64,000 bases of DNA from an uncultured delta proteobacterium (GTDB lineage: Bacteria; Myxococcota_A; Polyangia; Haliangiales; Haliangiaceae), in NCBI GenBank assembly GCA_963772655.1, contig CAVYYE010000003.1, positions 2,801,341-2,865,340 of the forward strand. Direction: 5' to 3'. A program made the position numbers and the translations under genes. This document shows, in pieces, positions 6,468 through 55,245 of the stretch (within the stretch, counting starts at the first letter, position 1; every line of letters starts with the position of its first letter). A model generated the notes under the pieces. That model was not told the origin of the DNA. It saw only the letters and a program-made list of their open reading frames with translations, and made no database searches.

Positions 6468-6473
6468 GTCCGG

Positions 6474-7388
6474 ATGCCACCGGCGCTGGACGAGCTCGAG
6501 GCCGAGATCCTCGCGACCTGGAACCGCGAGACCATCGAGGTCTACGGCGACCAGCTGCAAGCGCTCGGCGATCCGCGCGGCGAGATGATCGCGATCGATC
6601 TCGCGATCGAGGACGGCGGAGCGACTCCCGAGCTGACCGCACGACGCACCGAGCTGATCGACGCCTGGCTTGGCGACACGATCCCGAACGGCCGCGTACG
6701 GTGCGGATTCGTCGACCTCGATGCGACCGGTGCGGATCCGGTCGGCCAGATCCGACATGCGTTCGACGGCCCCGCGTCACGATTCGTGCGCAGCGTGGCG
6801 ATCGTCGGCTCACCCGCCACCATCATCGACACTGCGTCGGCGCTCACCGAGGAGGTTCGACCGTCGTTGACACGGCTCCGCATCCTGCAATGGAACGAAC
6901 GCGAGCGCGCGACCATCATCGCCACTCAGGCGCAGCAACTCGCGGCTGCCGTGCCTCATCTTCGCGAGCTCGCGATCGAGGGCCGCCGCGTGATCGCCGA
7001 CTTCGCACATCCGCAGCTCGCACGCCTGACCCTGTCGGGATTCGACGGCATCGGCTCGTTGCTCGACGACGCGCTCGCGTTGCCCGTGGTGGCGACGCTC
7101 GACCTCGCTCTGTTCGGTCACCTCGCTCGACGCGAACCCGCGCCACCGAACGACCTGTTCGCCCGGATCGGCGGCGGCATGCCGGAACTGGTCGAGCTCG
7201 ATCTGTCGCGCAACCGGCCCGGCTACCTCGATCCCGATCGCCTCGGTGGTGACGCTCCGATCGCGACCATGGTGCGCTCGCTCGCGATCGCCGAACGGCT
7301 GCGCACGTTGCGGATGCCGTCGTCGACCTCGCCCGTCGACCTCGCGAACCTGCGGGTCGCGTTTCCGTCGGTGGCGATCAGTCGGTAG
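6474..7388 (+). CDS. TIGR02996 repeat-companion domain protein with leucine-rich C-terminal region
   Basis: N-terminus EILATWNRETIEVYGDQLQALGDPRGEMIAIDL matches the ...yaDWLeErGDPRGEfI signature of the Myxococcales/Planctomycetes repeat-companion domain. The C-terminal part has LRR-like L-rich repeats. Confidence 0.6.
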   Translation: MPPALDELEAEILATWNRETIEVYGDQLQALGDPRGEMIAIDLAIEDGGATPELTARRTELIDAWLGDTIPNGRVRCGFVDLDATGADPVGQIRHAFDGPASRFVRSVAIVGSPATIIDTASALTEEVRPSLTRLRILQWNERERATIIATQAQQLAAAVPHLRELAIEGRRVIADFAHPQLARLTLSGFDGIGSLLDDALALPVVATLDLALFGHLARREPAPPNDLFARIGGGMPELVELDLSRNRPGYLDPDRLGGDAPIATMVRSLAIAERLRTLRMPSSTSPVDLANLRVAFPSVAISR

Positions 7389-8917
7389 CGGGTTCGGCGT
7401 CCGGTGCGGCCTTCTCGGGGGCCGGTTCGGACTTCGCGGATCCCGCGAGCGTCCACTCGTCGCGCCAGAACCCGACGACGAACGCCGGCACCAGCGGCCA
7501 GATGATCAGCGCGAGGTTGGGCTGCTTCAACACGCCGATCAGCGACAGTGCGAGGTAGAGCCCGAGCATCGCGACGCGCGCCTTCGCGTACTGGATCCGC
7601 CGCTTCATCGGCAGGAACAGCAGCAGGATGTCGAGCGGGAGCAGGATCGAGCAGGCTCTCGTTGGACGTCACGTACGGCAGCGGCGAGATGATCGCGAGG
7701 AACCACAGGATCCCGCCGACCAAGAACTGCGGCACGATCGCGATCGTCATCGCCACCCGTGGGAACCGCCCGTAGTAACGCGCGAGGATCACCGGCGACA
7801 CGAGGATCAACAGGATCACGGCGAGCGGGATCCGCCCCGACTGATGCGCCGTGTCTTCCTCGGCATCGGAGAGGCCGTTGCCGTCGGCATCGGCGAGCGA
7901 CGCGCCGGCGAGCTCGGGATGCTCGCGCGCGGGATCGCGCTGGTAGATGATGATCGGCTTCGCGCCCCACGGCATCTTCGCGACCGCCTCGCGCAGGTAC
8001 TGTGGCAGGAACATGCGGTCCCAGTAGTCGGGCACGTGATCGGTGCTCGCTCCCATCGCGATGTCGGTGGCGAGGAGCGGCAGCGGCAGGCCCTTGATCT
8101 TGAGCCCGAAGAACCCTTCGCGCGCGAGATCGCGGAACGTGCGGCCGTCGGTCGGCGTGTCGCGCAGCTTGCTCAGGCTGCCACCGGTCGCGCGATCGAG
8201 GATGTCGCGCACGCGGGTCGTGCAGTTGTCGTCGAAGTGGTCGTACGCGTAGTGCAGGTTCTTTGCATCGGCGTACTTCGGATCGAGCTCGCTACGGACC
8301 GCGCGACGCTCCTGGTAGATGTTGAACAGCTCGGGGTGTTCCTTCGGATCGTAGACCGGCTCCTCGGTCGGGTCGTAGCGCGGAGCCGAGTCGCGATACA
8401 GCTCCCCGCGGATCTGGTCCTTCTGCGCCTTGGTCAGCGTGAGGGGCTGCACCCACACCGTGCGGTTGCGACCGGCGTACACGCTGATCAGCGTCGACAC
8501 CGGCTGCTCGCCCGCCCAGAAGCTGTGGGTGCCTCGGAAGAATCCCCACGCCATCGACATCGGCTTCTCGAAGCTGCCGATGCCGTAGTTGAAGCACATG
8601 TCCTTCGACGAGTCGTGCCAGCGGATGCACATCGCGATGTGGCCGTGGCGCTCCCAGATCAGCGAGCCGATACCCATCGTGACCAGCTCGAGGGTGGGTT
8701 CCTCGTCGTAGAGCTTGGCGACCTGGGGGGGACAGCCATCCTTCGCCATGCCGCACGTCGTCAGGTTGGGGACGCTCAGTCGGACCGGGTGGATCTGTGG
8801 CGCGGGCTGCTCGTTCGAGCATGTATAGACCCCGACACCGAGTATCAGCACCAGCAGGATGCCGACGGGGCCGTAGCGACGAAGCACACGCGCAGTGTGA
8901 GCCATTGACCAACCCAA
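7378..8917 (-). CDS. Membrane protein (N-terminal signal anchor, large periplasmic domain, C-terminal TM helices) with apparent frameshift near 7650-7670
   Basis: The 7223..8917 frame is protein-like down to ...ISPLPYVTSNE, then becomes low-complexity. The hydrophobic continuation (ILLPLDILLLFLPMKRRIQY...GFWRDEW) is in another frame and ends at 7378. Confidence 0.5.
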
Positions 8918-20437: not shown

Positions 20438-22255
20438 CTACCGAAACATCAGCTCGCGGTAGAGCGCCATCTTCTTGTACTGGTGGGTCTCCATCCGTCG
20501 CAGGATCGAATCCAGCGTGTGAACCGCGCGGGCGATGTAGGCGCCTTTGTTGAGCATCACGCACTCGGCGCGCACCGACATCGCGGCATCGGTGATCTCC
20601 CCGCGCGACGGCAGCCCGGTCTTGGCGAGGTTCTCGAGCACCTGGGTCGCCCAGATCACCGGCACGTGCGCCGCCTCGCACAACCACAGGATCTCCTCCT
20701 GGAGCTCGGCGAGCCGTTCGAAGCCGACCTCGACCGCGAGATCGCCGCGCGCGATCATCACGGCGACCGGGTGATAGCGCAGCGCCTCGAGCAGCAGCTC
20801 GGACAGGTTGCGGAACCCCGACGAGGTCTCGATCTTGAGCACGAGCCCGATGTCGTCGCGCTCGGCCTCCGCCAGCACCTTGCGCATCACGCGCACGTCC
20901 TCCGCGGAGCGCACGAACGACAGCCCGATCATGTCGGCGTGCTCGAGCGCGAGCACGAGGCTGTCGCGATCCTTGTCGGAAATCGCGGCGAGCACGTCGA
21001 GGGTTGGCGTGTCGGGGAGGTTGATCCCCATCTCGCCGCGGATCCGGAACCGCTTGGCCGGCGTGCGCACGACCCGGAGCAGCACGCGTCCGGGCGCGGT
21101 CTCGACGGCGACCGCCTCGAGCTTGCCGTCGTCGACGAACACGCGATGGCCGACCGCGACCTCCGCGAGCAGGTTCGGCAGCGACATGCCGACCTCGAGG
21201 AAGCCACGCGACGCGTCGCGATCGATCGCCGACGGATCGGCGACCAGCCAGAACCGATCGTCGACGGCGAGCCCGACGCTGGTCTCGACGAGCGGCAACG
21301 CACCGGGAGGGAACCGCGCGAGCTCGCGGCCACCGCGCCGCAAGCTCAGCTCGGTGTGGTCGGTGAGGTACGTGGTCTCCTGCAACAGCGCCTCGACGCG
21401 ACCATCGTCGACGCGCGACACGATCACGCGTCGCTTCTTGCCGCGCGCGTCGCGGAACCGCAGCTCGTCACCGGGTTGCAGTCGTGCGAGCTGCTCGGCC
21501 GGGATCGGGATCGACGTCGGCGACGACTCGGTCGAGAGCTGCACGGCGAGTGCACCGGCAACGGCACCGAGCTCGTTCTTCGGCGGACGCAGTTTGTGGA
21601 CATGGACTCCGGGGCCGAGCGGGAGCGTGCGCAGCTTGGGGCCTTCGAGATCGATCAGGATGCGGACGTCGCGGTCGAGCGCGCGAGCGGTCTCGCGGAT
21701 CGTCGCGATCGCGCGCCGCCAGCCCTCGGCATCGTCGTGTGCGGTGTTGAGGCGAAAGCAGTTGGCGCCAGCCTCGAGCACCTCGCGCACCCAGGCCGGC
21801 GTGACGTCGCGGGCAGCGGGCAAGGTGACGAGGATGTAGACGTGGCGCGGCGACGGCTTGGGACCGAACAGCGCTCGCGAGTTTTCGTGGAGAAGCTCCT
21901 CGGCCTCGGCCGGCGTGATCGACGGAGCCGTCTCCGCGTCGCCGGAACGCGCGCGGTTCGCGATGTCGATTCGCGCGACCCCGCACATCTCGCCAAGTCG
22001 TGCGCGAACCTGCTCCAGGCTGTGTTGCACCCGGGCCTCGCACCGCCCGAGCGAGCTGAGCCCGAGCTCCGAGAGCTCCATCTGGAGCCGGCGCAAGTCG
22101 TGGCGGCGAAGGGCGAGGTAGTGAACCAGGTTGACGGCGCTCGCGGTGTTACGCGGATCGACGAGGCGCAGGGACTCCCCGGCCTCGACGACCTCACCGT
22201 CGAGAGACTGCAGCAACTGATCGAGTCGGTCGACGAGTGCACGCGGGTCGGGCAT
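20438..22255 (-). CDS. Pyruvate kinase-like protein (long atypical form)
   Basis: LKIETS, MIARGDLAVE and IWATQVLE: PK barrel catalytic motifs. GGAGG Shine-Dalgarno 3 nt upstream of ATG at 22255. Confidence 0.75.
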   Translation of the reverse strand: MPDPRALVDRLDQLLQSLDGEVVEAGESLRLVDPRNTASAVNLVHYLALRRHDLRRLQMELSELGLSSLGRCEARVQHSLEQVRARLGEMCGVARIDIANRARSGDAETAPSITPAEAEELLHENSRALFGPKPSPRHVYILVTLPAARDVTPAWVREVLEAGANCFRLNTAHDDAEGWRRAIATIRETARALDRDVRILIDLEGPKLRTLPLGPGVHVHKLRPPKNELGAVAGALAVQLSTESSPTSIPIPAEQLARLQPGDELRFRDARGKKRRVIVSRVDDGRVEALLQETTYLTDHTELSLRRGGRELARFPPGALPLVETSVGLAVDDRFWLVADPSAIDRDASRGFLEVGMSLPNLLAEVAVGHRVFVDDGKLEAVAVETAPGRVLLRVVRTPAKRFRIRGEMGINLPDTPTLDVLAAISDKDRDSLVLALEHADMIGLSFVRSAEDVRVMRKVLAEAERDDIGLVLKIETSSGFRNLSELLLEALRYHPVAVMIARGDLAVEVGFERLAELQEEILWLCEAAHVPVIWATQVLENLAKTGLPSRGEITDAAMSVRAECVMLNKGAYIARAVHTLDSILRRMETHQYKKMALYRELMFR

Positions 22256-22363
22256 GGTCCTCCGAAAGACGTGCATCCCGAGGGCCAGTGCTGCGCAGGA
22301 ATTTTCGCGCACGACGTGCGTGACGATCGTGTCGCAGGTGTCTGGGTGGCCGCTCGCGAAGTC

Positions 22364-23337
22364 TTACGGCATCGGGTGGGCCTGGAAGAACGCCATCACC
22401 TGCTCGCCCCACGTGAAGCTGTTGGGAAGCACGCAGGGGATCGCGTACTGCGCGGCGTAGGGATCGGTCGTGCTGCCCGCGATGCAGTGTCCCTTGGCGC
22501 TCGCGAACGGGCCGTCGGACACGGTCTCGTACGAGTGCTCGAAGGTCTCGATCAGCTCGCCGTCGGGACCGGTCCATCGGTTGTGGGTGTAGGTGGCGTC
22601 GCCGTCGACGGGCGTCGGTCCGGTCGCGTTGTACTCGGCGATCGCGGCGTCGCGGATCGTCACCATGCTCTGAAACCCGACCGAGGCGTCGGTGCGGCCC
22701 ATCATGAACACGATCGGGATCGGGCGCGACGGCGTGCGACCGGTCTCGAAGCAGGTCTGCTCGCCGAAGTTGGTGCCGCGGCCCGCCCCGGCCGGCGCCG
22801 CCGACGCGAACAGGTCGGCGTGATCGCAGAGCAGGCGCCAGGTCACGAACCCGCCACGCGAGAACCCGGTGACGTGAATCCGCTTGACGTCGACGCGAAA
22901 CACGTCGCGGAACTGCCCCACGATGTCGACCAGCGTGGCGTCGTTGCTCGCGTGCCAGGTCGAGCCCTGAAAGCCGCCGCCGAACGGCGGACCGGTCGGA
23001 GCGACGACGACGTATCCGTTCTGCTCGCCGAGGTCGCGCATCTGGATGTGGCCGTCCATGAGGAGGCCGTTGCCGGTGTCGCCGTGAAGCACGAGGATCA
23101 GGCCGCAGCCCGGTGCCTCGCACACCGCCGGGATCCGCGCGTCGACCTGGAGGCCGCCGCAGCTGTACACGTGATCGCCCGCGCTGATGTCGTCGATGCA
23201 GCCGGCGGGCACCGGCGGATCGGCCGGAGCGTCGGCGGGCGGCGCATCGTCGCCGGTAGCGGGATCGCTGCTGCCACCACACGCCATCGCCCCCAGGATC
23301 GCAACGAGGATCGCGAGAGCCAGCCCGATTCGCACGG
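22364..23337 (-). CDS. Esterase / PHB-depolymerase-family lipoprotein (alpha/beta hydrolase)
   Basis: GTG start giving VRIGLALAILVAILGAMAC lipoprotein signal. ILVLHG, HVTGFSRGG (GxSxG). The rest of the listed 1052-aa ORF is read-through antisense to the 23417 gene. Confidence 0.7.
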
Positions 23338-23416
23338 ATCGATTGTAACCAACGCGGGGGCCGATCGGCGGCCGGATCGATCGAGCGCCCCGGGCGGTGT
23401 GCGTTAGGGTCCGCCC

Positions 23417-25468
23417 ATGCGTAGATCGCTGCTGACCGCCGTCGTCACCGCCGCTGCTGTCTGGGGATGTTCCTCGAGCCCGAAGAAGATCCCGCCGGGA
23501 CCACCGCAGCCACCGGTCGGTGATGGCTCGGCCACCGCCGACCACGACGTGCCGCCGGATACCGGGCACGTCGAGAAGCGCACGCTGACCGAGGACACGC
23601 CGAGCACCACCGTCACCGGCAACAAGTTCATCGCGCCGGCGGGATGGCGCATCTGGGTCGACGGTCCGGCGACCGTGCTCGAGCCTCCCGAGGGCGGCTC
23701 GATGATCGCGCTGGTCGATGTCCAGGCCAAGGATTCGGAGGCGGCGCTCGCGGCGGCGTGGGCGGCGATCGAGCACCCGCCGAAGTGGAAGGTGCTGAAC
23801 CACACCGAGACACCGGACGCCAACGGGTGGAGCCACAACACGGGCTACGCCTACGATGTGCCCCCCAACGCCAAGCGCGTGGTCGCCGCCCACACGGCAT
23901 TCGCCAACGGCACGTGGACCGTGGTCCTGATCGACCTGGCGCAGGCGATCGCCGAGAAGCGTGGCGGCCAGCTCGGCGTGCTGTTCGGGCGCTTGCTTCC
24001 CAAGGGTGAAGAGGTCGAGTCGTTCGCGGGCAAGCAGCCCCACCCACTCGACAAGGCGCGGATCGCGGAGCTGTCCAAGTGGATCGAGGGCGCGCAGAAG
24101 CTGATGGACGTCGAGGGCGTCGGCCTCGGCCTGATCGACAAGGGCAAGGTCGTGTTCGCAGGCGGGTTCGGTGTTCGCACGCTCGGCAAGCGCGCGAAGG
24201 TCGATGCCAACACGCGGTTCATCATCGCGTCGAACTCGAAGGCGCTCACCACGCTGATGCTCGCGAAGCTGGTCGACGAGAACAAGCTGACGTGGGACAC
24301 GCCGGCGACCAAGCTGTTGCCGGAGTTCAAGCTCGGCAACGCCGACACCACGAAGCAGGTGCTGGTGAAGCACCTGATCTGCGCGTGCACGGGGATGCCC
24401 CGCCAGGATCTCGAGTGGCTGCTCGAGTTCAAGAACCTGACGCCGAAGGGCGTGCTGACGGCGCTGGGCAACATGCAGCCGACCAGCAAGTTCGGCGAGC
24501 TGTTCCAGTACTCGAACGTGATGGCCGCGGCGGCCGGCTTCCTCGGCGGGCACGTCGCGTATCCCAAGCTCGAGCTCGGCAAGGCCTACGACAAGGCGAT
24601 GCAGACGCGCGTGTTCGGTCCGCTCGGCATGCGGTCGACCACGCTCGACTTCAAGAAGGCGCAGCGCGGTGACTACGCGATGCCGCACTCGTTCGATATC
24701 GATCTGAAGCCCGCGCTCGCGGTCCACGCACTCAATTACTCGGTGATCCCGGTGCGTCCGGCGGGTGGCGTGTGGAGCACGGTCAACGACATGCTCGAGT
24801 ACGTCCAGATGGAGCTCGCCGACGGCAAGCTCCCCAACGGCAAGCAGTACGTCTCGAAGGAGGCCCTGCTCGCGCGGCGTGCGCCGCAGGTCGCGGTGTC
24901 CGAGGACACCACCTACGGCATGGGCCTCATGGTCAACACCCGCCACGGCATCCAGGTCGTCAGCCACGGCGGCGATCTGATCGGCTACCACAGCGACATG
25001 ATCTGGCTGCCCGAGTTCGGCGTCGGTGCCGTGATCCTCACCAACAGCGATCGCGGCAGCACGATCCGCAGCCTGTTCAAGCGCAAGCTGCTCGAGGTGC
25101 TGTTCGACGGCAAGCCCGAGGCCGACGCCCGGCTCGCCGCCGCCGACAAGAACTTCCGCGAGACCTACAAGGTCCAGCGCAAGCTGATCGAGGTCCCGGC
25201 CGATGCCGCCGAGGTCGCCAAGCTCGCCGCGCGCTACACCAACCCGTCGCTCGGGGAGCTCGCGGTGATCCACAAGGGCAAGACCACGACGTTCGACTTC
25301 GGCGAGTGGAAGTCCGAGGTCGCATCGCGCAAGAACCCGGACGGCTCGGTGTCGTTCCTCACGATCGCCCCGGGGATCACCGGCCTGGAGCTCGTCGTCG
25401 GCACCGGCGACAAGAAGACGCTGGTGATGCGCGACGCGCAGCACGAGTACACGTTCACCGCGCGCTGA
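23417..25468 (+). CDS. Class C beta-lactamase-family serine hydrolase (peptidase S12-like) lipoprotein
   Basis: Lipobox AVWGC. IIASNSKALT (SxxK). YSN and HGG downstream motifs. 683 aa. Confidence 0.85.
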   Translation: MRRSLLTAVVTAAAVWGCSSSPKKIPPGPPQPPVGDGSATADHDVPPDTGHVEKRTLTEDTPSTTVTGNKFIAPAGWRIWVDGPATVLEPPEGGSMIALVDVQAKDSEAALAAAWAAIEHPPKWKVLNHTETPDANGWSHNTGYAYDVPPNAKRVVAAHTAFANGTWTVVLIDLAQAIAEKRGGQLGVLFGRLLPKGEEVESFAGKQPHPLDKARIAELSKWIEGAQKLMDVEGVGLGLIDKGKVVFAGGFGVRTLGKRAKVDANTRFIIASNSKALTTLMLAKLVDENKLTWDTPATKLLPEFKLGNADTTKQVLVKHLICACTGMPRQDLEWLLEFKNLTPKGVLTALGNMQPTSKFGELFQYSNVMAAAAGFLGGHVAYPKLELGKAYDKAMQTRVFGPLGMRSTTLDFKKAQRGDYAMPHSFDIDLKPALAVHALNYSVIPVRPAGGVWSTVNDMLEYVQMELADGKLPNGKQYVSKEALLARRAPQVAVSEDTTYGMGLMVNTRHGIQVVSHGGDLIGYHSDMIWLPEFGVGAVILTNSDRGSTIRSLFKRKLLEVLFDGKPEADARLAAADKNFRETYKVQRKLIEVPADAAEVAKLAARYTNPSLGELAVIHKGKTTTFDFGEWKSEVASRKNPDGSVSFLTIAPGITGLELVVGTGDKKTLVMRDAQHEYTFTAR

Positions 25469-25539
25469 GTCGCCCGCGCGCACGGATGCGCGGCGAGTGC
25501 CACCCGGATCGCCGAGGGACACGTGGCCTACTCGGAGTG

Positions 25540-25585
25540 GTTATAACGAACGTTATAACGGTCTCGTTATAACGTCCGTTATAAC
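25540..25585. repeat. Array of four 10-bp palindromes (G/C)GTTATAAC(G/C) spaced 12/14/12 bp: candidate operator or iteron-like binding-site array
   Basis: Copies at 25540, 25552, 25566 and 25578 (ggttataacg, cgttataacg, cgttataacg, cgttataacc). AT-rich palindromes in a 70% GC genome, intergenic. Confidence 0.8.
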
Positions 25586-25612
25586 CACCTCGACTAACTA
25601 AGAACGGATCCT

Positions 25613-26110
25613 GAAATTCAGGTTCCCGGTTCCGCTTCCCTACTCCCTATTCGTCAGAGCGGACCCGTAGCCTGCGCGAATGAAGGGCGAGAACATCGCG
25701 ACGCGACTGCTTGTGTTCGGGGCCGGGGTCGTTCGACTGTGCCGGCGACTGCCGGACGACGCATCGACCAAACACATCGCGCGACAACTGGTGCGGGCAG
25801 CGCGGACTTCATCCACAAGGTTGGAATCGCGAACAAGGAGCTGCGCGAGGCGCTGTACTGGTTGCAGCTGACCGAGGAGGCGGCGCTACACCATTCCTGA
25901 CAGAATCGTGCGGCTCGGAATCGGCGGCCGTCCACGCCTCGGTCCCTTCGGGATCGGAGGAAGCAGCGCCTCTACGTGCTCCCACAATGCGTCCGGAATC
26001 TCGGCGAACTTGGTCTCCACACGCCGCGTAGATCACGAGCGATCCGGCGCAGCAATCAGTGGCGACCGAATAGGGAACAGGGAAGCGGAACCGAGAAGGA
26101 GAACGGCCCG
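25613..26110. mobile_element. IVS-like relic: ~27-bp inverted repeats flanking a disrupted four-helix-bundle (TIGR02436-type) ORF
   Basis: IR-L ...cggttccgcttccctactccctattcg (25627..25653). IR-R cgaatagggaacagggaagcggaaccg (26067..26093). Reverse complements match at 25/27. Possible 7-bp flanking direct repeat agaacgg (25601-7, 26099-105). Confidence 0.5.
25680..25900 (+). pseudogene. Four-helix-bundle protein (23S rRNA IVS protein family) remnant, frameshifted with internal deletion
   Basis: Frame 1 reads ...KHIARQLVRAARTSS (matches QLxRAAxS...). Frame 2 continues DFIHKVGIANKELREALYWLQLTEEAALHHS*, the family C-terminal helix. The central NIAEG region is missing. Confidence 0.55.
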
Positions 26111-26189
26111 TTGTGATGTTTCGGATCGCCCGGCGCCCGGGATCTGCGGGTCCGGTGGTATCGGACACGCATCTCGGTGCGCACGCCAG

Positions 26190-27446
26190 CTATGGGGTGA
26201 CGCCGATCGCGCCGTCGATGTTCTCGAGTCCGCTGCCCATCGCGAGCGAGCCGACGTCCTCGACGGTGCCGTCGGCGTGAAACGCGAGCTGGCGCACCGA
26301 GACGTTCTCGGACACGAACACGCGACCCTGCAGGGTGCCGCGCTCGATCATCGCGAGGTCGCCGGGGAGCTGCGGCGATGCGCCGGTGTACGGGACCTCG
26401 CCGCGCACCTGCCAGGTGCCGCCGGCACCGTTGGCGTCGAGCACGAACAGCGCGTCGCCGAACGCGCTCGCGACGATCGCGACATCGCCGAACGGCGAGG
26501 CCACGATCGCTTCCGGATCCTCGACGTCGACCGAGCCGAGCGGCGTCATCGTGCCGCTGCCGGCGATCTTGACCGCCGCGACGCGGTTGTCGATGCCCGA
26601 GAACTGGCTGACGTCGCCGACCAGGAACGTGCCGCCGTCGAACGTCAGTGCGGTACCGCCGACGATCTGCATGTTGTCGGGGAACGCGTCGGCACCCGAC
26701 GTGCGGGTTGCCGCACCGTCGAGCGTGGCGAGGTGGACGTCGTCGCCGGCCGGCGAGTCGAGCAGACCCTTCGCCGCGACGATCGCGCCGCCGTCGGACG
26801 TGAACACCATCCCGCCCGGCAGGTCGGCCGCGGCGACGAGGCCCATGTCGGTCGGCGTACCGTCGCAGCCGATCGCGACCTCGTAGATGCCGCCGTCGTT
26901 GCCCAGCGTGTCGGGATCGATCACGTAGGCGCGGTCGCCGCGCGGATCGACGACCACGCGGTCGGCGTAGAACGATCCCTCGAGCACCGTGATCGGCGTC
27001 GGCGTGCCGTCGGCGTCGAGCCGGAACACGCCGAGCTTGCCGTCCTCGGTCGCGACCAGGCCGATCTCGCCGTCCGGGGTGAACGCGATCGTGCCGACCG
27101 CCGCGCGCCCGAGCGTGAACGTGCGCCCCGGTCGGGTCAGCTCGCCGGTCTGCGACAGGTCGAGGACCTCGAACGTATCGGCCTTGTTGCCGTCGGTGTC
27201 GTAGGGGTGCGCGACCACGACGTGACGCGCGCGATCCGCCGCCGCCGGCATCCGCGCGCACGCGGCCGGGCCGTCGTTGCCACCGTCAGGCGGCGGCATG
27301 TCGTCGGCGACCTCGGAGTGGCCACACGCCGCGCCGGCGAGCCCGATCGCTTCCAACGCGACCGCGATCGCGAGTCGCGACGTCGTTGTTGCCCGACTTC
27401 GCGTCCGCGGTCGACCTCCCGGCTGGGTGCCCGCTCGCGAAGTCAC
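26190..27446 (-). CDS. Lipoprotein with beta-propeller-like repeats, carrying conserved leader VTSRAGTQPGGRPR
   Basis: GTG start overlaps the stop of the 27443 gene (GTGA). Signal/lipobox LAIAVALEAIGLAGAAC. Repeated Gly/Asp-rich beta-strand blocks. The R-rich 26056..27261 ORF is an alternative frame of this gene. Confidence 0.65.
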   Translation of the reverse strand: MTSRAGTQPGGRPRTRSRATTTSRLAIAVALEAIGLAGAACGHSEVADDMPPPDGGNDGPAACARMPAAADRARHVVVAHPYDTDGNKADTFEVLDLSQTGELTRPGRTFTLGRAAVGTIAFTPDGEIGLVATEDGKLGVFRLDADGTPTPITVLEGSFYADRVVVDPRGDRAYVIDPDTLGNDGGIYEVAIGCDGTPTDMGLVAAADLPGGMVFTSDGGAIVAAKGLLDSPAGDDVHLATLDGAATRTSGADAFPDNMQIVGGTALTFDGGTFLVGDVSQFSGIDNRVAAVKIAGSGTMTPLGSVDVEDPEAIVASPFGDVAIVASAFGDALFVLDANGAGGTWQVRGEVPYTGASPQLPGDLAMIERGTLQGRVFVSENVSVRQLAFHADGTVEDVGSLAMGSGLENIDGAIGVTP

Positions 27447-28636
27447 CGCGAGGCCTTCCGGACCGGCTTCTTCTTCGTCACCGGCTTGGGGCCGCGCTTC
27501 ATGAACACCATGTGGCCGTTGCCCTCGCCGTTGGGGTAGCCGAACCGGAATGCGAGGTCGCGGTGCGGCTTGGACGCGAACAGCGCCTTCCACGTCCACC
27601 GCACCGAGCCATTGCCGGCGTTCATGTTCGACTTCTTCCAGTCGCCCCAGGTCTCGTACTCGAACCCGGCGGGCTCGCCGATCGACGGCGGGATCCCGGT
27701 GGTGTCGCTGACCATCCAGTCGACATGCTGGATCAGGTAGTTCCGGAACCTGCTGAAGTTGCCGTACGAGAGCAGGTAGCTCGCGGCCTTCGTCATCCCG
27801 GCGACATGGCCCTTCGCGGCGAGGTACTGGAGCGGTGCGTTCCACTTCGCGAGGTGCTCGTTGTCGAGGTTGGCCATCAGGTGGCGATACACCTGCTCGT
27901 GCTTGCTGCCGTGCTTGCGAAACCGCAGCTCGACGTTGCCGAACACGCGATTGCGCGCGGCGGCGTTGCGGATGCGCTCGCCGCGCTTGATGTCGCGCTC
28001 GGTCAGGTAGACGACGCGCCCGCGGTTGTCGAGGCGGAAGTACCGCATGCCGAGCAGCTCGTAGCCGTGGATGTCGAGCGCGGCCAGGTTGAAGATCAGC
28101 TGCGTCGGTAGCTGGCCGCCACGCATCGCGCCGATCATGTCCATCGTCTTCGAGTAGCTGGCGCGGTATAGCTCGCCGAGCTCGTAGTCGACGACGCCGA
28201 GCGCCTTCTCGAGTTGCTTGTCGTCGAGCCGTTTGAGCGACCGCGGGTCCCCCGCTGGCTCGAGCGACAGCGTGGTGATGTCGTCGGCGTCGGGGAACAC
28301 CGTCAGTGCGGTCACCAGGTCGCCGCCCGCGAACGGATACACCACCGTGGTCGGTAGCCCCGAGGGCATGTGGGCGCGGAAGAACTTGGTCGCCGGGGCG
28401 AGCCACGCCTTGCGGTAGTCCGCCTGCGCCGCGTGCACCTTCTCGCAGTGCGCGGAGATGATCTCCGAGCGGTGATCCTTGCCGGTCGGTGCCTTGCCGG
28501 CGCACGCGCCGATCGAGAGCAGCTGGTTCGCCTCGTCGAGCATCTCGACCGGCGCCGCCTTGTCGGCAAACGCGCGGGACGACCACGCGATGGATGTGAG
28601 GAGCACCAGCGAGACGGCGAACAGCAGGGAACGCAT
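27443..28636 (-). CDS. Secreted hypothetical protein, uncharacterised family (paralog B of 19209..20360)
   Basis: Signal MRSLLFAVSLVLLTSIAWSSRAFA. Conserved blocks shared with paralog A. Basic C-terminal tail. Confidence 0.75.
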   Translation of the reverse strand: MRSLLFAVSLVLLTSIAWSSRAFADKAAPVEMLDEANQLLSIGACAGKAPTGKDHRSEIISAHCEKVHAAQADYRKAWLAPATKFFRAHMPSGLPTTVVYPFAGGDLVTALTVFPDADDITTLSLEPAGDPRSLKRLDDKQLEKALGVVDYELGELYRASYSKTMDMIGAMRGGQLPTQLIFNLAALDIHGYELLGMRYFRLDNRGRVVYLTERDIKRGERIRNAAARNRVFGNVELRFRKHGSKHEQVYRHLMANLDNEHLAKWNAPLQYLAAKGHVAGMTKAASYLLSYGNFSRFRNYLIQHVDWMVSDTTGIPPSIGEPAGFEYETWGDWKKSNMNAGNGSVRWTWKALFASKPHRDLAFRFGYPNGEGNGHMVFMKRGPKPVTKKKPVRKASR

Positions 28637-28768
28637 CGGCCGAGGACTCTGCCGCAATTGCGACCGCCGCGCGAGCCCCGATGTTCGTGGCTGGCATCAC
28701 GGTCGCAAGTGCGGTTGGCCTCGGCAAAAGTCCTGGACCGAACCTCCGGCCCCACCTACGCTCCGCCC

Positions 28769-29674
28769 GTGCGGAGGGTGATCGTCTCGGCCGTGTTGGT
28801 GGTGCTCGGGTCCGCGTGTACGCGGACGGTCGCGCACCCACCCGACGCCGACCCGTCGCTGCCCTACCCACCCGCGCGCACCGATCTGGTTCCCGCGGTC
28901 GGCGCCGACGAGACGCTGGAGATCGCGACCTGGAACATCGAGAACTTCCCGATGCGCCCGACCACGCCGCAGATCGTGGCCGACATCATCGCCTCGCTCG
29001 ATGTCGACGTGGTCGTCACCGAGGAGATCGCCGATGAAGATGCGTGGAACGAGCTACTGGCTCGCCTGCCCGACCGCGACGGCATCCTGTCGACTCACCA
29101 GTACAGCCCCGGCAACTACCAGAAGATCGGCGTGATCTACCGGCGCGACCTGGTCACCGCCGGCGAGCCGACCCTGCTGTTCACCAGCGACGGCTACAAC
29201 TTCCCGCGCCCGGCCCTCGCCGTCCCGATCACCGTCGACGGCAACACCTTCGAAGTGATCGGCATCCACCTCAAGGCCGGCACCGGCACCGAGGACGCCG
29301 CCCGCCGCACCGCTGCCGTCGCCTCGCTCGACAACTTCCTGCGCGCCCAGATCGATGGCGGCGGCGAGGACGAGGTGATCGTGCTCGGCGACTACAACCA
29401 GCGCGTCGACACCGCCGCCCAGCGCGCCGTGCTCGCTCCACTCCTCGACGCGCCCGATCGCTACACCGTGCGCACCGAACCCGGCGCCAGCGCCGGCGGC
29501 GCGACCTACCTCGGGTTCGGCGGCGAGTGGATCGATCACGTCACCACGACGACGGCGCTCGATGCCCGGTGGTCGTCGGTCGCCGTCGCGGTGCCCGGCC
29601 TGCAGGGCGAGATCTCGAGCTACATGCAGCTCGTCAGCGATCACCTGCCGGTCGTGCTGGTCGCGCCGCGCTGA
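28769..29674 (+). CDS. Endonuclease/exonuclease/phosphatase (EEP) family lipoprotein
   Basis: GTG start giving VRRVIVSAVLVVLGSAC lipobox. LEIATWNIENF, LGDYN and SDHLPV: EEP-fold motifs. Confidence 0.7.
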   Translation: MRRVIVSAVLVVLGSACTRTVAHPPDADPSLPYPPARTDLVPAVGADETLEIATWNIENFPMRPTTPQIVADIIASLDVDVVVTEEIADEDAWNELLARLPDRDGILSTHQYSPGNYQKIGVIYRRDLVTAGEPTLLFTSDGYNFPRPALAVPITVDGNTFEVIGIHLKAGTGTEDAARRTAAVASLDNFLRAQIDGGGEDEVIVLGDYNQRVDTAAQRAVLAPLLDAPDRYTVRTEPGASAGGATYLGFGGEWIDHVTTTTALDARWSSVAVAVPGLQGEISSYMQLVSDHLPVVLVAPR

Positions 29675-29713
29675 TCGTTCACGGCTCGATCGCAGCGACG
29701 TCGAGTCGACTGG

Positions 29714-30022
29714 TTAGTACCAGTGGTGGCGCTGCCAGAACCGCTTGGCTTGATCCCACCCGCCATAGCGATCGCGCACGTAGTGCGACGCCGCGTTGTA
29801 CTGGTCGCCGAGGTTGGTCGACTGCCAGTTGCTGCCCATGTACTGCTTGCGGGTCGCCTTGAGCATCTGGAACGCACCGAACGCGGTCGAGTGCGGGTTC
29901 TGTGCGCGCGGGTTGCCGCCCGACTCGTGCTGCATGATCCAGCGCGCCGAGGCGCCCATGCCGCCACTCGCGCGGCGAAGGGTTTCGGGATCGATCGTCT
30001 CGAAGGGGTTGTTGACGGACAT
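29714..30022 (-). CDS. Small lysozyme-like / transglycosylase-like protein (ESGGNP...FGAFQ motif)
   Basis: IMQHESGGNPRAQNPHSTAFGAFQMLKATR resembles the Lysozyme_like (PF13702) core. C-terminal W-rich tail. No obvious signal peptide. Confidence 0.5.
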   Translation of the reverse strand: MSVNNPFETIDPETLRRASGGMGASARWIMQHESGGNPRAQNPHSTAFGAFQMLKATRKQYMGSNWQSTNLGDQYNAASHYVRDRYGGWDQAKRFWQRHHWY

Positions 30023-31329: not shown

Positions 31330-31596
31330 TCACGCGTTGCGAGGCTGGATCCGGCTCGACACGGTGAGCTGGGTCGCCCGGCTGCGGGTCTCGATCTGGA
31401 TCTCGACCGCCTCGGCGTCGATCTCGACGTATTTGGCGATCACGGCCGCGATCTCCTCGCGCATCTCCTGCAGCCGCCCACCCTCCAGGCCGCTGCGGTC
31501 GTGGGCGAGCACGAGGTGGAGCCGCCCCTTGGCGACCTGGCTGGAGCGCCGGCCGGCGAGAAACGTCTTGATGTTGTGCCACATGGAATCGGCCAT
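31330..31596 (-). CDS. minE: Cell division topological specificity factor MinE
   Basis: 88 aa. MADSMWHNIKTFLAGRRSSQVAKGRLHLVLAHDR is collinear with the E. coli MinE N-terminus. Directly downstream of minD. Confidence 0.9.
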   Translation of the reverse strand: MADSMWHNIKTFLAGRRSSQVAKGRLHLVLAHDRSGLEGGRLQEMREEIAAVIAKYVEIDAEAVEIQIETRSRATQLTVSSRIQPRNA

Positions 31597-31604
31597 CCCT
31601 TCTC

Positions 31605-32399
31605 TCAGGCCGGGGTTGCCGACAGACCGAGCGCGCGGCCGATCCGGGTGAAGAAGCCGACCGACTCGGGGCGCTCGTTCTCGGAGCCGTCGAGCCGTCG
31701 AGCGATCCGAATCAGCTCCTTGGCCGCGAGCGACTTGCCCTCGAGCACCGCCGGGATGCCCTTGTTGGTGGTGGCGACGATCTGGTCGTCGAGCGGGATC
31801 GCACCGAGCATGTCGACCGCGAGGATCTCGATGACGTCGGCCTGCGACAGCATGTCGCCGCGCTTGACCAGCTGATGGGAGATCCGGTTGACGATCAGGC
31901 GTGCCGGCAGGTCGGCCGCGGCGAGTAGCCCGACCACGCGATCGGCGTCGCGGATCGACGACACCTCCGGGGTGGCGACCACGATCGCCTCGTCGGCGCC
32001 CGCGATCGCGTTCTTGAAACCTTGCTCGATGCCCGCCGGGCAGTCGATGAGCACGAAGTCGTGCGAGTGCTTGAGCTCGAACACCAGCGACCGCATCTCG
32101 TCGGGAGTCACCGTGTCCTTGTCGTCGGACTGCGACGCCGGCAGCATCCACAGGTTGTCGAGGCGGCGATCCTTGATCAGCGCCTTCTGCACCGAGCAGC
32201 GGCCTTTGATGGCGTCGACCAGGTGGTAGACGATGCGGTTCTCGAGTCCCATCACGACGTCGAGGTTCCTGAGCCCGATGTCGGCGTCGATCAACACGAC
32301 CGAATGACCGAGCTGCGCGAGAGCGCTGCCGAGGTTGGCGGTGGCGGTGGTCTTGCCGACACCTCCTTTGCCTGACGTGATGACGATTGCGCGACCCAT
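31605..32399 (-). CDS. minD: Septum site-determining ATPase MinD
   Basis: GKGGVGKTT deviant Walker A. LIDADIGLRNLD. C-terminal amphipathic helix. 264 aa. Confidence 0.95.
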   Translation of the reverse strand: MGRAIVITSGKGGVGKTTATANLGSALAQLGHSVVLIDADIGLRNLDVVMGLENRIVYHLVDAIKGRCSVQKALIKDRRLDNLWMLPASQSDDKDTVTPDEMRSLVFELKHSHDFVLIDCPAGIEQGFKNAIAGADEAIVVATPEVSSIRDADRVVGLLAAADLPARLIVNRISHQLVKRGDMLSQADVIEILAVDMLGAIPLDDQIVATTNKGIPAVLEGKSLAAKELIRIARRLDGSENERPESVGFFTRIGRALGLSATPA

Positions 32400-32411
32400 G
32401 GGGTGACTCCT

Positions 32412-33456
32412 CTAGCTCTGGCTTTTGGGGGTGGTGGACAGCGTGTCGGCGAGGCCGCGCGGCAGCCTCCCCTGGTAGCGTTCGACGACGATGCTGTCGT
32501 CGGTGAGGTAGGCGATCTCGGGCACCGTGGCGGTCTCGCCGTCGCTAGCACGCGCGACCGTGCGGCAGATGCGGAGCTGCTGCGGCTCGAGCCGGAGTGC
32601 GACGATGAACCCGGCGGTGGCACCGATGCCGGCGTGTGCGGTTCCACGCAGTCGCCCGAGCACGATGATGTTCCCCTCGGCGCGCACCTCGGCGCCCGGG
32701 TTGACGTCCCCGAACACGATCAGGTGACCGCGGTGATCGAGGATCACGCCCGAGCGCACGGGGCCGACGAACAGCCGCGTGGTCTCGGAGCGCAACGCGA
32801 GAATCGAGCTGGGCCGGCGACGGCTGGGCCGGCGACGGCGACGGCGACGGCGACGCGGGCGTCTCGGCGACCGGCTCCGGCGCCGGCTCGGTCGTGTCGT
32901 TGGCGGGAATCGGCGGGATGCTTGGCAACGCCGGCTGCACCGGCTCGGCGGCGCCGGGTCCGGTCCACGCGAGGCCCTGGCTCGCGGAGGCGATCGCGTC
33001 GGGCAGTCCGGGATCGGCGAGCGCCGGTGCGAGGGCGGCGGCGGTGGCGAGCACCGCGGAGCTCGGCTCGGGTGGTGCAGGCGGCATCGGTGCCGAGCCG
33101 GCGGCGAGCTGGACCTCGAGCCGGGGAATCGCATCGCGCTCGGGGGGTTTGGGCACGCTCGGCAGAGCGCCGACCTCGATGATCCGCAGCTCGAACCTGG
33201 CGGCGAGCTCGTCGAGTCGGCTCAGGCTGCCGGGAGGCAGCGGCCCCCCGTCGACACGGATCCGGACGTCGTTGTCCTTGAAGAACCCCGGAGCCTCGGA
33301 CAACCGCGTCGTGGCGGCGTCGACGATCGCGTCGAGCGGTGCTTCGCCGTCGACGACGATCTCGAGACCTCTCGTGCCGCCGCGCAGGATCGCGGCCGGG
33401 CGATCGGAGCGATCCGGACGAGCGACGATATCGAGCGCTGCATTCCCCGCGGTCAT
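32412..33456 (-). CDS. minC: Septum site-determining protein MinC, with apparent frameshift in Pro/Ser-rich linker (near 32790-32805)
   Basis: N-domain (MTAGNAALDIV...VRIRVDG) and PSPSPSPAQ linker are in one frame. The C-domain (TRLFVGPVRSG...GDVNPGAEV...LRGTAHAG) is in another. TATATAG lies 3 nt upstream of the ATG. Confidence 0.7.
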
Positions 33457-33570
33457 GGCTATATAAAAACCCCTATAGGCCCCCGCGAACGTGGGCAAGT
33501 TTTCGGCGGTGCCGCGCCGGCGCCGTCGCAAAAGTCGAGGCGCCGATCTCCACGCCCTACAATTTCGGTC

Positions 33571-53305: not shown

Positions 53306-53992
53306 GACCCCTCCTCGTAACTGCGGCGTTGTTGTGGAAACAGAATGGATCGGGCGTCTGATCTCGAGACAAAGCTCCCCTGTCGGCAGACGTCCATCCG
53401 GATTGCCTAACTGCCGATTCGTTCAGGGAAAATCTGTTTCTAGGTCAGTGCCCTTGCTGAGCTCGATGACGACTTGGATGGCGAAACGGAAAGGACCTGT
53501 ATCAGGTGCCTATGACTGCGCGGGTCGAAGAACCGAGCCCGAGAGCTGGACTGCCTCGAACGGACAGCATCCAGCGGCGACCAGGCCGCCAAACAGCGGC
53601 CTAACGGTGACCAGGCCGCGGTACAGCGGCCAACGGCTAAGTGCGGGCGACGGCGTGTGATCCAAGCTGGGCATCGCGACGGAGTTCCCTTTTAACGAGG
53701 CCGAAATAAGAGGGCAAGAAAAAGAGGCGCTAGATTTAGTGGCTCATCTTCCGATGGGTCCTACACATAGTGTGGTCACGGGTGAGATATCCACGTGGAC
53801 AGGTTGTGAATTGCCAGTGAATTGAGGTGAGGGACGACAGGGTTTCCAGCGCGATTCCGAAGTGTTGATAGATGCTGTGGATAAGGCTGTGAGTCTCTGA
53901 AAAAGCGTGAATTGACGCGGCGAGTCTTCGCGAGATCTCGCCCCCAAAAAAATTTGCGCTCAGTTCCGGATTGAGGTGGAAAGAAGATTTTC

Positions 53993-54012
53993 GGGGCCGA
54001 TCTCTCGGCCCC
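53993..54012 (+). other. Stable hairpin (8-bp GC stem GGGGCCGA/TCGGCCCC, loop TCTC) followed by GATTTGTC, in the divergent intergenic region
   Basis: Perfect inverted repeat read directly from the sequence. Could be a weak terminator or a 5'-UTR structure for the 54088 gene. Confidence 0.4.
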
Positions 54013-54087
54013 GATTTGTCACGGTGCTGCCGCCGTTTCGAGGAGATCGTGACTTCGTCAAACCAGGACGTTTACTCTCGTTTCTCG

Positions 54088-55242
54088 ATGCGGGTGCTGG
54101 TCCTGTTGTTCGTTCTCGCGGGGTGCCGCCAGCTCCTCGGGTTCGACGAGCCGGTGCCACTCGCGGGAGATGGTCCGTCTGCCGATTCTCCGGCCGACGC
54201 CACGCCCGATGGGGACGACGGTCCGACGAGCGATGCGTGTACGAGCTTCTCGTCGGTGATCGACACCTGCGTCGCCACGCCGAGCGACCCGCTCGAGATC
54301 GACGTCCCGACCACCTACGACACCGACACCGGCCAGCTGCTCTCCAACCAGGGCTCGTCGATGCCACAGCACGTGGTGTTCTCGACGGACACCGGCACGA
54401 TCGACGCGGTGTTCGCGACCTCGATCTCGATCGGCCCGACGGCGGCGCTGACGGTCACCGGCTCGCGGCCCGTCGCCCTGGTCGCGACCGGGACGATCAC
54501 GGTCGAAGGCACGATCGATCTCGACGCGGGTGGTGCGGGCGTGCCGTTCTCCGGCTGCAACATCGAGATCGGTGGTGACGGGCAGAACGATACCGGCGGC
54601 GGGGCCGGTGGTGGCGGCGGTGGGTTTCGCGGGGCCGGCGCCGACGGTGGCAACGGCGATCAGGACATGGGTCAGTCGACGCACGGCGCCGGCGGCCAGA
54701 TCGTGGCGCTTCCCGCCGCGCCCCGCGCGGGTTGCGCGGGTGGTCGAGGCGGCAACGGGAACGCCCCCGGTGGAACCGCCGGGGTTGCGGGTGGCGCGAT
54801 CCTGATCGCGTCGGAGTCTTCGGTCTCGGTGTCGGGAACGATCTCCGCGAGCGGTGGCGGCGGCCAAGGCGGCCACGCACCCGATGGCGGTGGGGCCGGC
54901 GGCGGCAGCGGCGGGATGATCGTGATCGAGGCGTCTTCGCTCGTGGTCACGGGCGCGCTCGTCGCCAACGGTGGCGGTGGCGGCGAGGGTGCGGCCAACT
55001 CCAACGGCAATGACGGCGCGACCGGCAACGCCACCGGTGCACCCGGTGGAGCCGGTGGTACATCGCTCGGTGCCGACGGTGGCAAGGGCAGCGGTCCGGT
55101 CGCACTGTTCGGCCAGTCACCGACGTCCGTGCAGGTTGCCGGCGGCGGCGGAGGTGGCGGCGGCGCGGGCTTCATCGGGCTGCGCGCCGGGAACCAGACG
55201 ATCGGCGGCACCGTGTCGCCGCCGTCCGTTCCGTGGCCGTGA
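54088..55242 (+). CDS. Secreted Gly-rich repeat protein (lipoprotein), paralog of 1127..2443
   Basis: Internal Met with MRVLVLLFVLAGC lipobox. GAILIASESSVSVSGTISASGGGG and GGSGGMIVIEASSLVVTGALVANGGGG repeat blocks are homologous to the 1127..2443 protein. Confidence 0.7.
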   Translation: MRVLVLLFVLAGCRQLLGFDEPVPLAGDGPSADSPADATPDGDDGPTSDACTSFSSVIDTCVATPSDPLEIDVPTTYDTDTGQLLSNQGSSMPQHVVFSTDTGTIDAVFATSISIGPTAALTVTGSRPVALVATGTITVEGTIDLDAGGAGVPFSGCNIEIGGDGQNDTGGGAGGGGGGFRGAGADGGNGDQDMGQSTHGAGGQIVALPAAPRAGCAGGRGGNGNAPGGTAGVAGGAILIASESSVSVSGTISASGGGGQGGHAPDGGGAGGGSGGMIVIEASSLVVTGALVANGGGGGEGAANSNGNDGATGNATGAPGGAGGTSLGADGGKGSGPVALFGQSPTSVQVAGGGGGGGGAGFIGLRAGNQTIGGTVSPPSVPWP

Positions 55243-55245
55243 CCG

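Follow-up and report, generated by a model that had tools for sequence, protein, structure and literature searches.

Results

An array of four identical palindromes between two convergent genes

The window analysed here is a stretch of 64,000 nucleotides from an uncultured delta proteobacterium of the family Haliangiaceae (assembly GCA_963772655.1, contig CAVYYE010000003.1, positions 2,801,341 to 2,865,340), and the feature under study is an array of four exact copies of the 8-bp palindrome GTTATAAC held within 46 bp (25540-25585). The array follows a plus-strand gene for a serine hydrolase of the beta-lactamase family (23417-25468; Pfam PF00144, E 3e-52), whose product is 100% identical to the database protein P0001 and whose best named relatives, ~70-72% identical, come from Nannocystaceae. 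By these relatives the organism is a myxobacterium close to Nannocystaceae. The first core starts 72 nt past the stop codon of the hydrolase gene, and a decayed IVS-like mobile element follows right after the end of the array; an earlier, sequence-only reading of the window had placed the array correctly on both sides. By GC3 frame analysis (GC content at third codon positions), the next real gene lies on the minus strand at 26190-27446, its start codon being approximate, and the array is therefore located between two convergent gene ends. This downstream gene has no Pfam match, and a homologous 3' end is found in the metagenome contig L114.

L114 is the closest syntenic relative of the locus. 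Its hydrolase orthologue is 74% identical and its flanking gene order is the same, and the convergent stop codons are only 2 nt apart. It follows that the 721 bp between the two stop codons of the window (25469-26189, without strand), which contain both the array and the IVS-like element, are extra DNA of the window's lineage; the IVS-like element accounts for most of them.

The octamer GTTATAAC occurs nowhere else on either strand of the 64 kb. Dinucleotide shuffling gives an expectation of 0.04 +/- 0.20 copies, and four copies were reached in 0 of 100 shuffles, so the four-palindrome cluster proposed by the sequence-only reading is real and is also, as proposed, beyond chance. Several of the details need revision. 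The starts given (25540, 25552, 25566 and 25578) are right for the 8-bp cores, which occupy 25540-25547, 25552-25559, 25566-25573 and 25578-25585 and have no strand; the 10-mers to which they had been attached begin one base earlier, at 25539, 25551, 25565 and 25577. Perfect symmetry over 10 bp belongs to the inner two (CGTTATAACG, 25551-25560 and 25565-25574), whereas the outer two (GGTTATAACG, 25539-25548, and CGTTATAACC, 25577-25586) are perfect over 8 bp only. The cores start 12, 14 and 12 bp apart, which is neither uniform nor exactly one helical turn, and the even spacing of about one turn does not hold. The low-GC island exists as a modest dip, with a GC content of 0.545 in 25500-25699 against ~0.62-0.75 in the other 200-nt steps of 22000-30000.

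The region 25525-25600 is laid out as ...ACTCGGAGTG GTTATAAC GAAC GTTATAAC GGTCTC GTTATAAC GTCC GTTATAAC CACCTCGACTA..., and the three spacers between the palindromes are all unlike (AA, GGTCTC, TC). Tandem Repeats Finder returned a period of 12 (3.7 copies) and a period of 26 (2.0 copies), and a repeat finder reported a 26-nt direct repeat across the array. Given these spacings and periods, the natural description is one of two tandem 20-bp units of the form GTTATAACGnnCGTTATAAC: unit A (GTTATAACGAACGTTATAAC, 25540-25559), made of two cores at 12-bp spacing, and unit B (GTTATAACGTCCGTTATAAC, 25566-25585), 26 bp after unit A, both without strand and both picked up by the two programs.

All four cores are held in a 68-nt composite, near-perfect palindrome (25529-25596, again without strand), which begins 61 nt past the hydrolase stop codon and was absent from the sequence-only reading. 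Its two arms (25529-25560 and 25565-25596) are 32 nt each and 88% complementary according to the repeat finder, and they enclose a 4-nt loop, GTCT. Counted by hand, mismatches between the arms fall at 0 of 20 positions inside the units and at 4 of 12 in the spacers and outer flank (one-sided Fisher p ~0.014). This distribution, together with the fact that all spacers differ, is the signature of sites and not of a stem, and a hairpin requirement alone cannot explain four identical self-complementary 8-mers. Identical short palindromes set at differing spacers are the anatomy of a multi-site protein-binding array.

The same 20-bp unit in other genomes

An exact-pattern scan for GTTATAACG-N2-4-CGTTATAAC in one genome per species (185,579 species) returned 71 loci; the window's own locus was not among the results. 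In 19 alphaproteobacterial species, from Hyphomonadaceae, Caulobacteraceae, Parvularculaceae, Stellaceae and others, the 20-mer GTTATAACGnnCGTTATAAC lies directly upstream of an operon that encodes an antitoxin (PF04014, MazE/AbrB fold) and a Doc toxin (PF02661) (loci L054, L060, L061, L063, L066, L068, L071, L074, L082, L087, L088, L089, L092, L094, L096, L101, L102, L112 and L113). The distance from the 20-mer to the antitoxin start codon is 15-16 nt in 12 of the 19 according to the caller of open reading frames (ORFs), and inspection of the sequences puts the ATG in the same place in most of the others. Judged by this placement, GTTATAACGnnCGTTATAAC looks like a conserved operator of a family of mazE/AbrB-type antitoxin and doc operons. 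We know of no earlier description of this alphaproteobacterial mazE-doc site.

The 20-mer also lies upstream of a gene for a TetR protein with an LmrA/YxaF-like C-terminal domain in four Streptosporangiales of the genera Nonomuraea, Actinomadura and Microtetraspora (L056:750, L069:5907, L076:257 and L079:5927), and these loci have a second, degenerate site (CTATAACGnnCG...) ~35 bp away. Both units of the window recur unchanged. The 20-mer of unit A is identical in Actinomadura (L069), upstream of the TetR gene, and that of unit B is identical in Hyphomonadaceae (L066, before antitoxin-doc), in Nonomuraea (L076, before TetR) and in Bdellovibrionales (L044 and L077). A Bdellovibrionales metagenome-assembled genome (MAG) has the 20-mer beside a weak AbrB-like ORF. 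Going by its neighbours, the 20-mer is a recurrent motif at putative operator positions, with at least two different protein folds adjoining it.

An array comparable to that of the window was found only once in the exact-pattern scans of species genomes and metagenomes. A Haliangiales MAG (L055, contig JBBQJJ010000055.1) has a four-unit array at 7911, 7923, 7938 and 7950 (spacing 12, 15, 12), ~70 nt after a stop codon, and this is the single match of that genome in the species-genome scan. Two of its cores each differ from GTTATAAC by a single substitution. The sequences that flank the two arrays show no significant similarity, and orthology of the "beta-lactamase" genes that precede them was rejected at 23% identity. 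Since the plan is the same and nothing outside the units is significantly similar, what has been preserved is the sites and the way they are spaced. In L124, the nearest relative to L055 with an orthologue 88% identical, the array is missing. A metagenome scan for tandem double units gave five loci, none of them myxobacterial, and GTTATAAC was absent, with one mismatch allowed, from ~80 kb of other myxobacterial loci. Conservation in relatives, to which the sequence-only reading had looked, is thus lacking: the array is unique in the window and absent from L114, and that of L055 is likewise missing from its own nearest relative.

In a Nocardioides MAG (L052:326-347), GTTATAACGTCAACGTTATAAC and several further AACGTT repeats lie ~95 nt upstream of a gene for a 194-aa ParA-type ATPase, possibly as a partition-operon operator or a centromere. 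A phage contig (L022; 7,967 bp, 48% GC, with a large terminase) has five copies of GTTATAAC-N4-GTTATAAC, at 396, 1584, 1815, 2355 and 3633, of which three are just upstream of leftward ORFs, one is in a divergent intergenic region and one in an AT-rich stretch. On this contig the motif looks like a phage promoter or operator motif, and a PHROGs search of the contig gave no hint of a binder. An 11-nt match between the window and this contig after the sites (ACTAACTAAGA) was rejected as coincidence, TAAGA being part of the conserved end of the IVS-like element. Bifidobacterium primatium (L097:4630-6193 and L109:2460-2583) has many CGGTTATAACGCA... units at 51-nt spacing in both orientations, which look like a palindromic extragenic family unrelated to the window array. 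Two metagenome contigs of 55-56% GC (L119:4103-4143 and L122:10384-10424) carry CCGTTATAACGG in perfect tandem with a 12-nt period, three copies being full and the fourth truncated. A literature search for the motif returned only primers and oligonucleotides of the Vibrio cholerae repeats (VCR).

Chromosomal surroundings and the possibility of a bound array

Pfam scans covered about half of the predicted ORFs of the window, namely the genes within ~12 kb on each side of the array and the small ORFs elsewhere; the predicted ORFs outside the scans were mostly larger ones distant from the array. The scanned neighbours are chromosomal housekeeping genes (pyruvate-kinase-like, alpha/beta hydrolase, Exo_endo_phos, SLT, GGDEF, minCDE and cyclophilin). 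Integrases, Rep, ParB/KorB and repressors are absent from the scanned ORFs, as are transposase and RAYT families, and neither plasmid nor phage collections yielded a BLAST match. A complete minC-minD-minE cluster lies on the minus strand at 31330-32795 (PF03775, a ParA/MinD-type ATPase and PF03776), and its MinD is the sole ParA-like ATPase found. A crude GC3 call also leaves several stretches of 0.7-1.7 kb without a codon-biased ORF (985-2503, 6468-7222, 32796-33570, 53306-54314, 54564-55245 and 55816-57512), which may hold foreign genes, RNA genes or further mobile debris.

These results bear on the possibility that the array is a working one away from any promoter and bound by a protein encoded elsewhere, be it as a centromere-like or partition site, a transcriptional roadblock separating the convergent genes, a titrating decoy or the iterons of a plasmid or phage. 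Perfect cores beside differing spacers (by hand count) suggest current constraint, the four-unit plan is common to L055, and the related site in the Nocardioides MAG stands before a small ParA gene, all of which would suit such a function. Nevertheless, we hold it to be improbable. Neither par nor rep genes nor any sign of a phage or plasmid is seen among the annotated ORFs, the array is the only one of its kind in the window and is absent from the closest relative, and the L055 copy, with its two core substitutions, is already decaying.

Two forms of this explanation that the sequence-only reading had put forward are not supported. Plasmid or phage iterons are direct repeats of ~17-22 bp, carried on such replicons beside the origin or a rep gene. 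The units of the window are instead palindromic, no rep gene was found among the scanned ORFs, the neighbourhood is chromosomal and no plasmid or phage sequence matches, which speaks against iterons. A partition site (parS, parC or centromere-like) would adjoin parA/parB or parR/parG genes or match the parS consensus; it likewise lacks support, the only ParA-like ATPase being MinD and no ParB having been found in the scanned ORFs, and the array motif differs from the parS consensus. The ParB/KorB-like or repressor gene that the same reading had suggested looking for nearby did not turn up among the scanned ORFs. Its other suggestion, that the window might lie in an integrated element, is not borne out either, given the lack of an integrase among the scanned ORFs and a flanking gene order that matches L114. 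A prophage or genomic island, marked by an integrase, attachment-site repeats and foreign genes, is likewise unsupported, the extra DNA relative to L114 being only 721 bp.

Folding of the palindrome

Folded as RNA, the 68-nt palindrome reaches -36.8 kcal/mol on the plus strand (z -7.8) and -44.1 kcal/mol on the minus strand (z -9.9); its DNA fold has a z of -6.6, and it is the longest short-loop hairpin detected within the 64 kb. The predicted plus-strand stem has a single 1x1 mismatch (A.C) and no bulged bases. Because this A.C turns into G.U on the other strand, the minus-strand RNA has an unbroken 25-bp stem, a weak hint that the relevant transcript, if RNA structure matters, is that of the convergent minus-strand gene.

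Such folds raise the possibility of a structural hairpin, either in the RNA of one of the convergent genes or as a DNA cruciform, that would act as a 3'-end stabiliser, RNase III target, insulator or terminator, the repeated GTTATAAC being merely how the stem happens to be built. Its position between convergent genes, 61 nt past one stop codon, is suitable, the symmetry continues outside the repeated units, and the L055 array, also ~70 nt past a stop codon, folds as well (-24.7 kcal/mol, z -3.6). However, we consider a structural role unlikely. Four identical self-complementary 8-mers are not needed for a stem, the mismatches avoid the units instead of spreading along the stem, and the two core substitutions of L055 are uncompensated on the plus strand (U.C and A.C). 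The stem is AT-rich in a genome of ~68% GC, no comparable long AT-rich hairpin occurs elsewhere in the window, and by a crude gene call the other convergent pairs of the window have spacers of 0-39 nt. Furthermore, the closest syntenic relative, L114, is without any spacer, which means that the structure is not needed at the locus.

Known classes of RNA element were not recognised in the palindrome. An intrinsic terminator consists of a GC-rich stem followed by a U-tract. Here the stem is AT-rich, no T-run comes after it and no terminator-like site was found in 25300-26300, and this assignment was rejected. At gathering thresholds Rfam gave no RNA family anywhere in the window, and at relaxed thresholds the array returned only a meaningless, sub-threshold match to a microRNA hairpin.

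The neighbouring IVS-like element and the possibility of a mobile palindrome

A decayed IVS-like mobile element begins 2 nt past the end of the palindrome (25599-26132, plus strand; the right end is uncertain within 26110-26132). The element contains inverted repeats of 31 nt, at 25623-25653 and 26067-26097, along with a broken four-helix-bundle gene from 25680. Read in spliced form, this gene gives a TIGR02436 match (E 1.3e-7), and its PF05635 homologues reach 74% identity. The decay consists of an internal deletion, a frameshift and truncation of the right end. Four other myxobacterial contigs carry copies (L125:655-1175, L126:1036-1505, L127:263-580 and L128:223-540) that have the same ends (TAAGAACGGATCCTGAAATTCAGG...) and inverted repeats and are positioned directly after stop codons, and GTTATAAC is absent from all four with one mismatch allowed. 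Since these copies carry no array and the window's own element begins only beyond the palindrome, at 25599, the array does not belong to the IVS-like element.

The copies make up an IVS-like family in Myxococcota of ~320-530 bp, in which a four-helix-bundle gene (PF05635/TIGR02436) lies between inverted repeats of 28-37 nt; the outer ends (TAAGAACGGATCCTGAAATTCAGG...) are conserved and the elements are inserted immediately behind stop codons, in many cases between convergent genes. The homologues are mostly on metagenome contigs shorter than 1 kb, as expected of a repeat that breaks assemblies. Within the window copy, a minus-strand fragment at 25889-26032 (KFAEIPDALWEHVEALLPP...GRPP) resembles the N-terminus of an IS4/IS5-family transposase, with a match to PF13340 (DUF4096) that is below the Pfam cut-off (E 1.8e-5, 25.4 bits); given this fragment inside the IVS-like element, more than one mobile element has inserted here. 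A Nannocystaceae MAG (L115) has a 392-nt spacer after the orthologous hydrolase gene, flanked by the 19-nt direct repeat GGCGACGACGAGGACGAGC (8049-8067 and 8377-8395), which suggests another small insertion at the equivalent position.

The palindrome could itself be a small mobile or recombination element, either a REPIN- or MITE-like foldback or a tyrosine recombinase site of attC-like or dif-like type, inserted downstream of a gene and marking an insertion hot spot. In keeping with this, such arrays lie in lineage-specific DNA of two myxobacterial genomes, at sites that are not homologous; 68 nt of extragenic palindrome between convergent genes fits REP doublets, and another mobile element has inserted 2 nt from its end. 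Still, we regard this explanation as distinctly unlikely. No second copy exists in the 64 kb and none in the ~80 kb of other myxobacterial loci, the Haliangiales genome has a single match, the flanks of the two arrays are dissimilar, and the scanned ORFs contain no transposase, RAYT or integrase. With the IVS-like element taken out in silico, the flanks pair in RNAfold; their complementarity is not significant (score 19 versus 16.3 +/- 3.0, a score reached by 19% of shuffles), which lends no support to a larger palindrome of ~190 nt or to MITE terminal repeats.

The recombination-site form of this explanation has two resemblances in its favour. In our own reading, the 20-mer can be divided into two inverted arms of 7 bp and a 6-bp centre between them (GTTATAA-CGAACG-TTATAAC), as recombinase core sites are laid out. 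Moreover, the attC repeats of Vibrio cholerae begin and end with GTTATAAC, according to the oligonucleotide table of PMC2095811, and they share with the palindrome a similar length, imperfect symmetry and paired boxes ~12 nt apart. In contrast to the window array, the R and L boxes of attC sites are distinct, extrahelical bases and a variable loop are present, and the sites come in cassette arrays, usually with an integrase. The array has four identical boxes, no bulges or extrahelical bases in its stem and a single site, and no integrase was found in the scanned ORFs; only the resemblance to the VCR ends is left, and attC was rejected. A dif (Xer) site has an 11-6-11 layout with a conserved XerD arm and lies at the GC-skew switch of the terminus. 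Aligned by hand to the E. coli dif consensus, the array matches 7/11 of the XerC arm and 4/11 of the XerD arm, and the window has no GC-skew switch, so that dif was rejected as well.

Discussion

We tentatively favour, at a probability of about 45%, the reading that the array is an orphan set of operator-type binding sites left by horizontally acquired DNA and possibly still bindable. It draws on analogy with the loci at which the same 20-mer stands in operator position. In addition, the arrays of the window and of L055 are both missing from the nearest relative, that is, both are lineage-specific insertions, and the mobile-element debris beside the window array is compatible with acquired DNA.

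By the same analogy, one dimer of a small DNA-binding protein, for example an antitoxin of AbrB/MazE fold, would occupy each 8-10 bp palindrome, and adjacent dimers 12 bp apart would bind cooperatively; alternatively, one TetR-type dimer might occupy each 20-bp unit. Elsewhere the 20-mer precedes a gene or operon that would be autoregulated, and binding there would be expected to repress the promoter. The window array would then be the stranded remnant of an acquired autoregulated cassette, probably duplicated in inverted orientation, whose genes have been lost or whose binder is encoded elsewhere in the genome. It is the convergent gene ends and the decayed mobile element beside the array that lead us to read it as stranded.

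Several points weigh against an orphan operator. Lying between convergent gene ends, the array has no gene for an operator to control; it is 61-72 nt from one stop codon and would be ~70-95 nt from the other without the IVS-like element. No sigma-70-like promoter was found in 25300-26300, tblastn detected no homologues or gene remnants of AbrB/MazE, Doc or TetR in the window, and no DNA-binding family is present among the Pfam-scanned ORFs. The dyad symmetry reaches ~10 nt past the units (7/10 complementary by hand count, p ~0.004), which binding sites alone do not explain and which a hairpin or an inverted duplication would; it suggests that a half-element was duplicated in inverted orientation or that the hairpin is under some selection. 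Furthermore, given that at least two unrelated folds stand beside the same 20-mer, the analogy does not identify a protein, and the analogue loci were chosen by the pattern itself, with the ascertainment that this entails. The operator-type character that the sequence-only reading had seen in the array is thus supported by its anatomy and by the same 20-mer in operator position elsewhere, but not by its present location, where there is no gene to control.

It is also conceivable, though in our view improbable, that the array is a self-standing functional module, a compact binding platform or foldback element that moves without genes of its own and has reached at least two myxobacterial genomes, those of the window and of the Haliangiales MAG L055. 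Such a module could work in trans with a regulator or antitoxin whose gene lies in another part of the genome, and it could be a decoy operator, a roadblock separating the convergent genes or a mini mobile element of hairpin type. To our knowledge, nothing comparable is on record for the motif.

The array itself counts for now as a curiosity, well-defined but probably inert. Should the product of a distant gene bind it, it would represent an operator cluster that outlived its own genes or moved without them, and this myxobacterial chromosome would contain a natural decoy or roadblock. The analysis has two by-products of more practical bearing: an operator-like motif, conserved and apparently not described before, of a widespread mazE-doc toxin-antitoxin family, and the definition of a small IVS-like mobile element family in Myxococcota.

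Comparison with known systems

REPINs, ERIC-type palindromes and MITEs are, like the array, imperfect extragenic palindromes of 60-130 nt that often lie between convergent genes. These families have tens to hundreds of copies per genome, and MITEs in addition have terminal inverted repeats and target duplications, whereas a single copy of the array is seen in the window and none in the ~80 kb of other myxobacterial loci.

Operators of the TetR family are palindromes of 15-20 bp that adjoin, and usually lie upstream of, the TetR gene or a divergent target. The sites in Nonomuraea, Actinomadura and Microtetraspora share with the window the same 20-bp palindrome and the presence of a second site nearby, as in the window's two units. 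Their second site, however, is degenerate and ~35 bp off, and in the window the palindrome has no adjoining TetR gene, none having been found by tblastn or in the scanned ORFs.

A likeness in architecture is offered by the L and S repeats of yefM-yoeB, short palindromes with an identical core at 12 bp centre to centre, each of which is thought to be bound by one antitoxin dimer (PMC1802561). Exactly this paired layout at 12 bp recurs in both units of the window, A (25540/25552) and B (25566/25578), and it is the palindrome spacing of a type II toxin-antitoxin operator. In the window, however, two pairs stand in tandem and form one large palindrome, and the core is GTTATAAC instead of TGTACA. 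The position also differs: operators of the yefM-yoeB type overlap the promoter and are at most ~80 bp from the antitoxin start codon, on its upstream side, whereas the array does not precede an antitoxin gene and no promoter-like site was found around it. On the favoured reading, the array functions, or once functioned, as paired-palindrome operators do.

In the motif itself, the array agrees with the mazE-doc operons. Composite mazE-doc or tasAB-type modules are widespread and mobile and are found on plasmids and chromosomes (PMC1626090). In the alphaproteobacterial operons a single 20-mer precedes the antitoxin start, whereas there are two in the window, where neither mazE nor doc is found. 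The motif GTTATAACGnnCGTTATAAC is nevertheless identical in both, and unit B of the window is the site of the Hyphomonadaceae operon L066 base for base.

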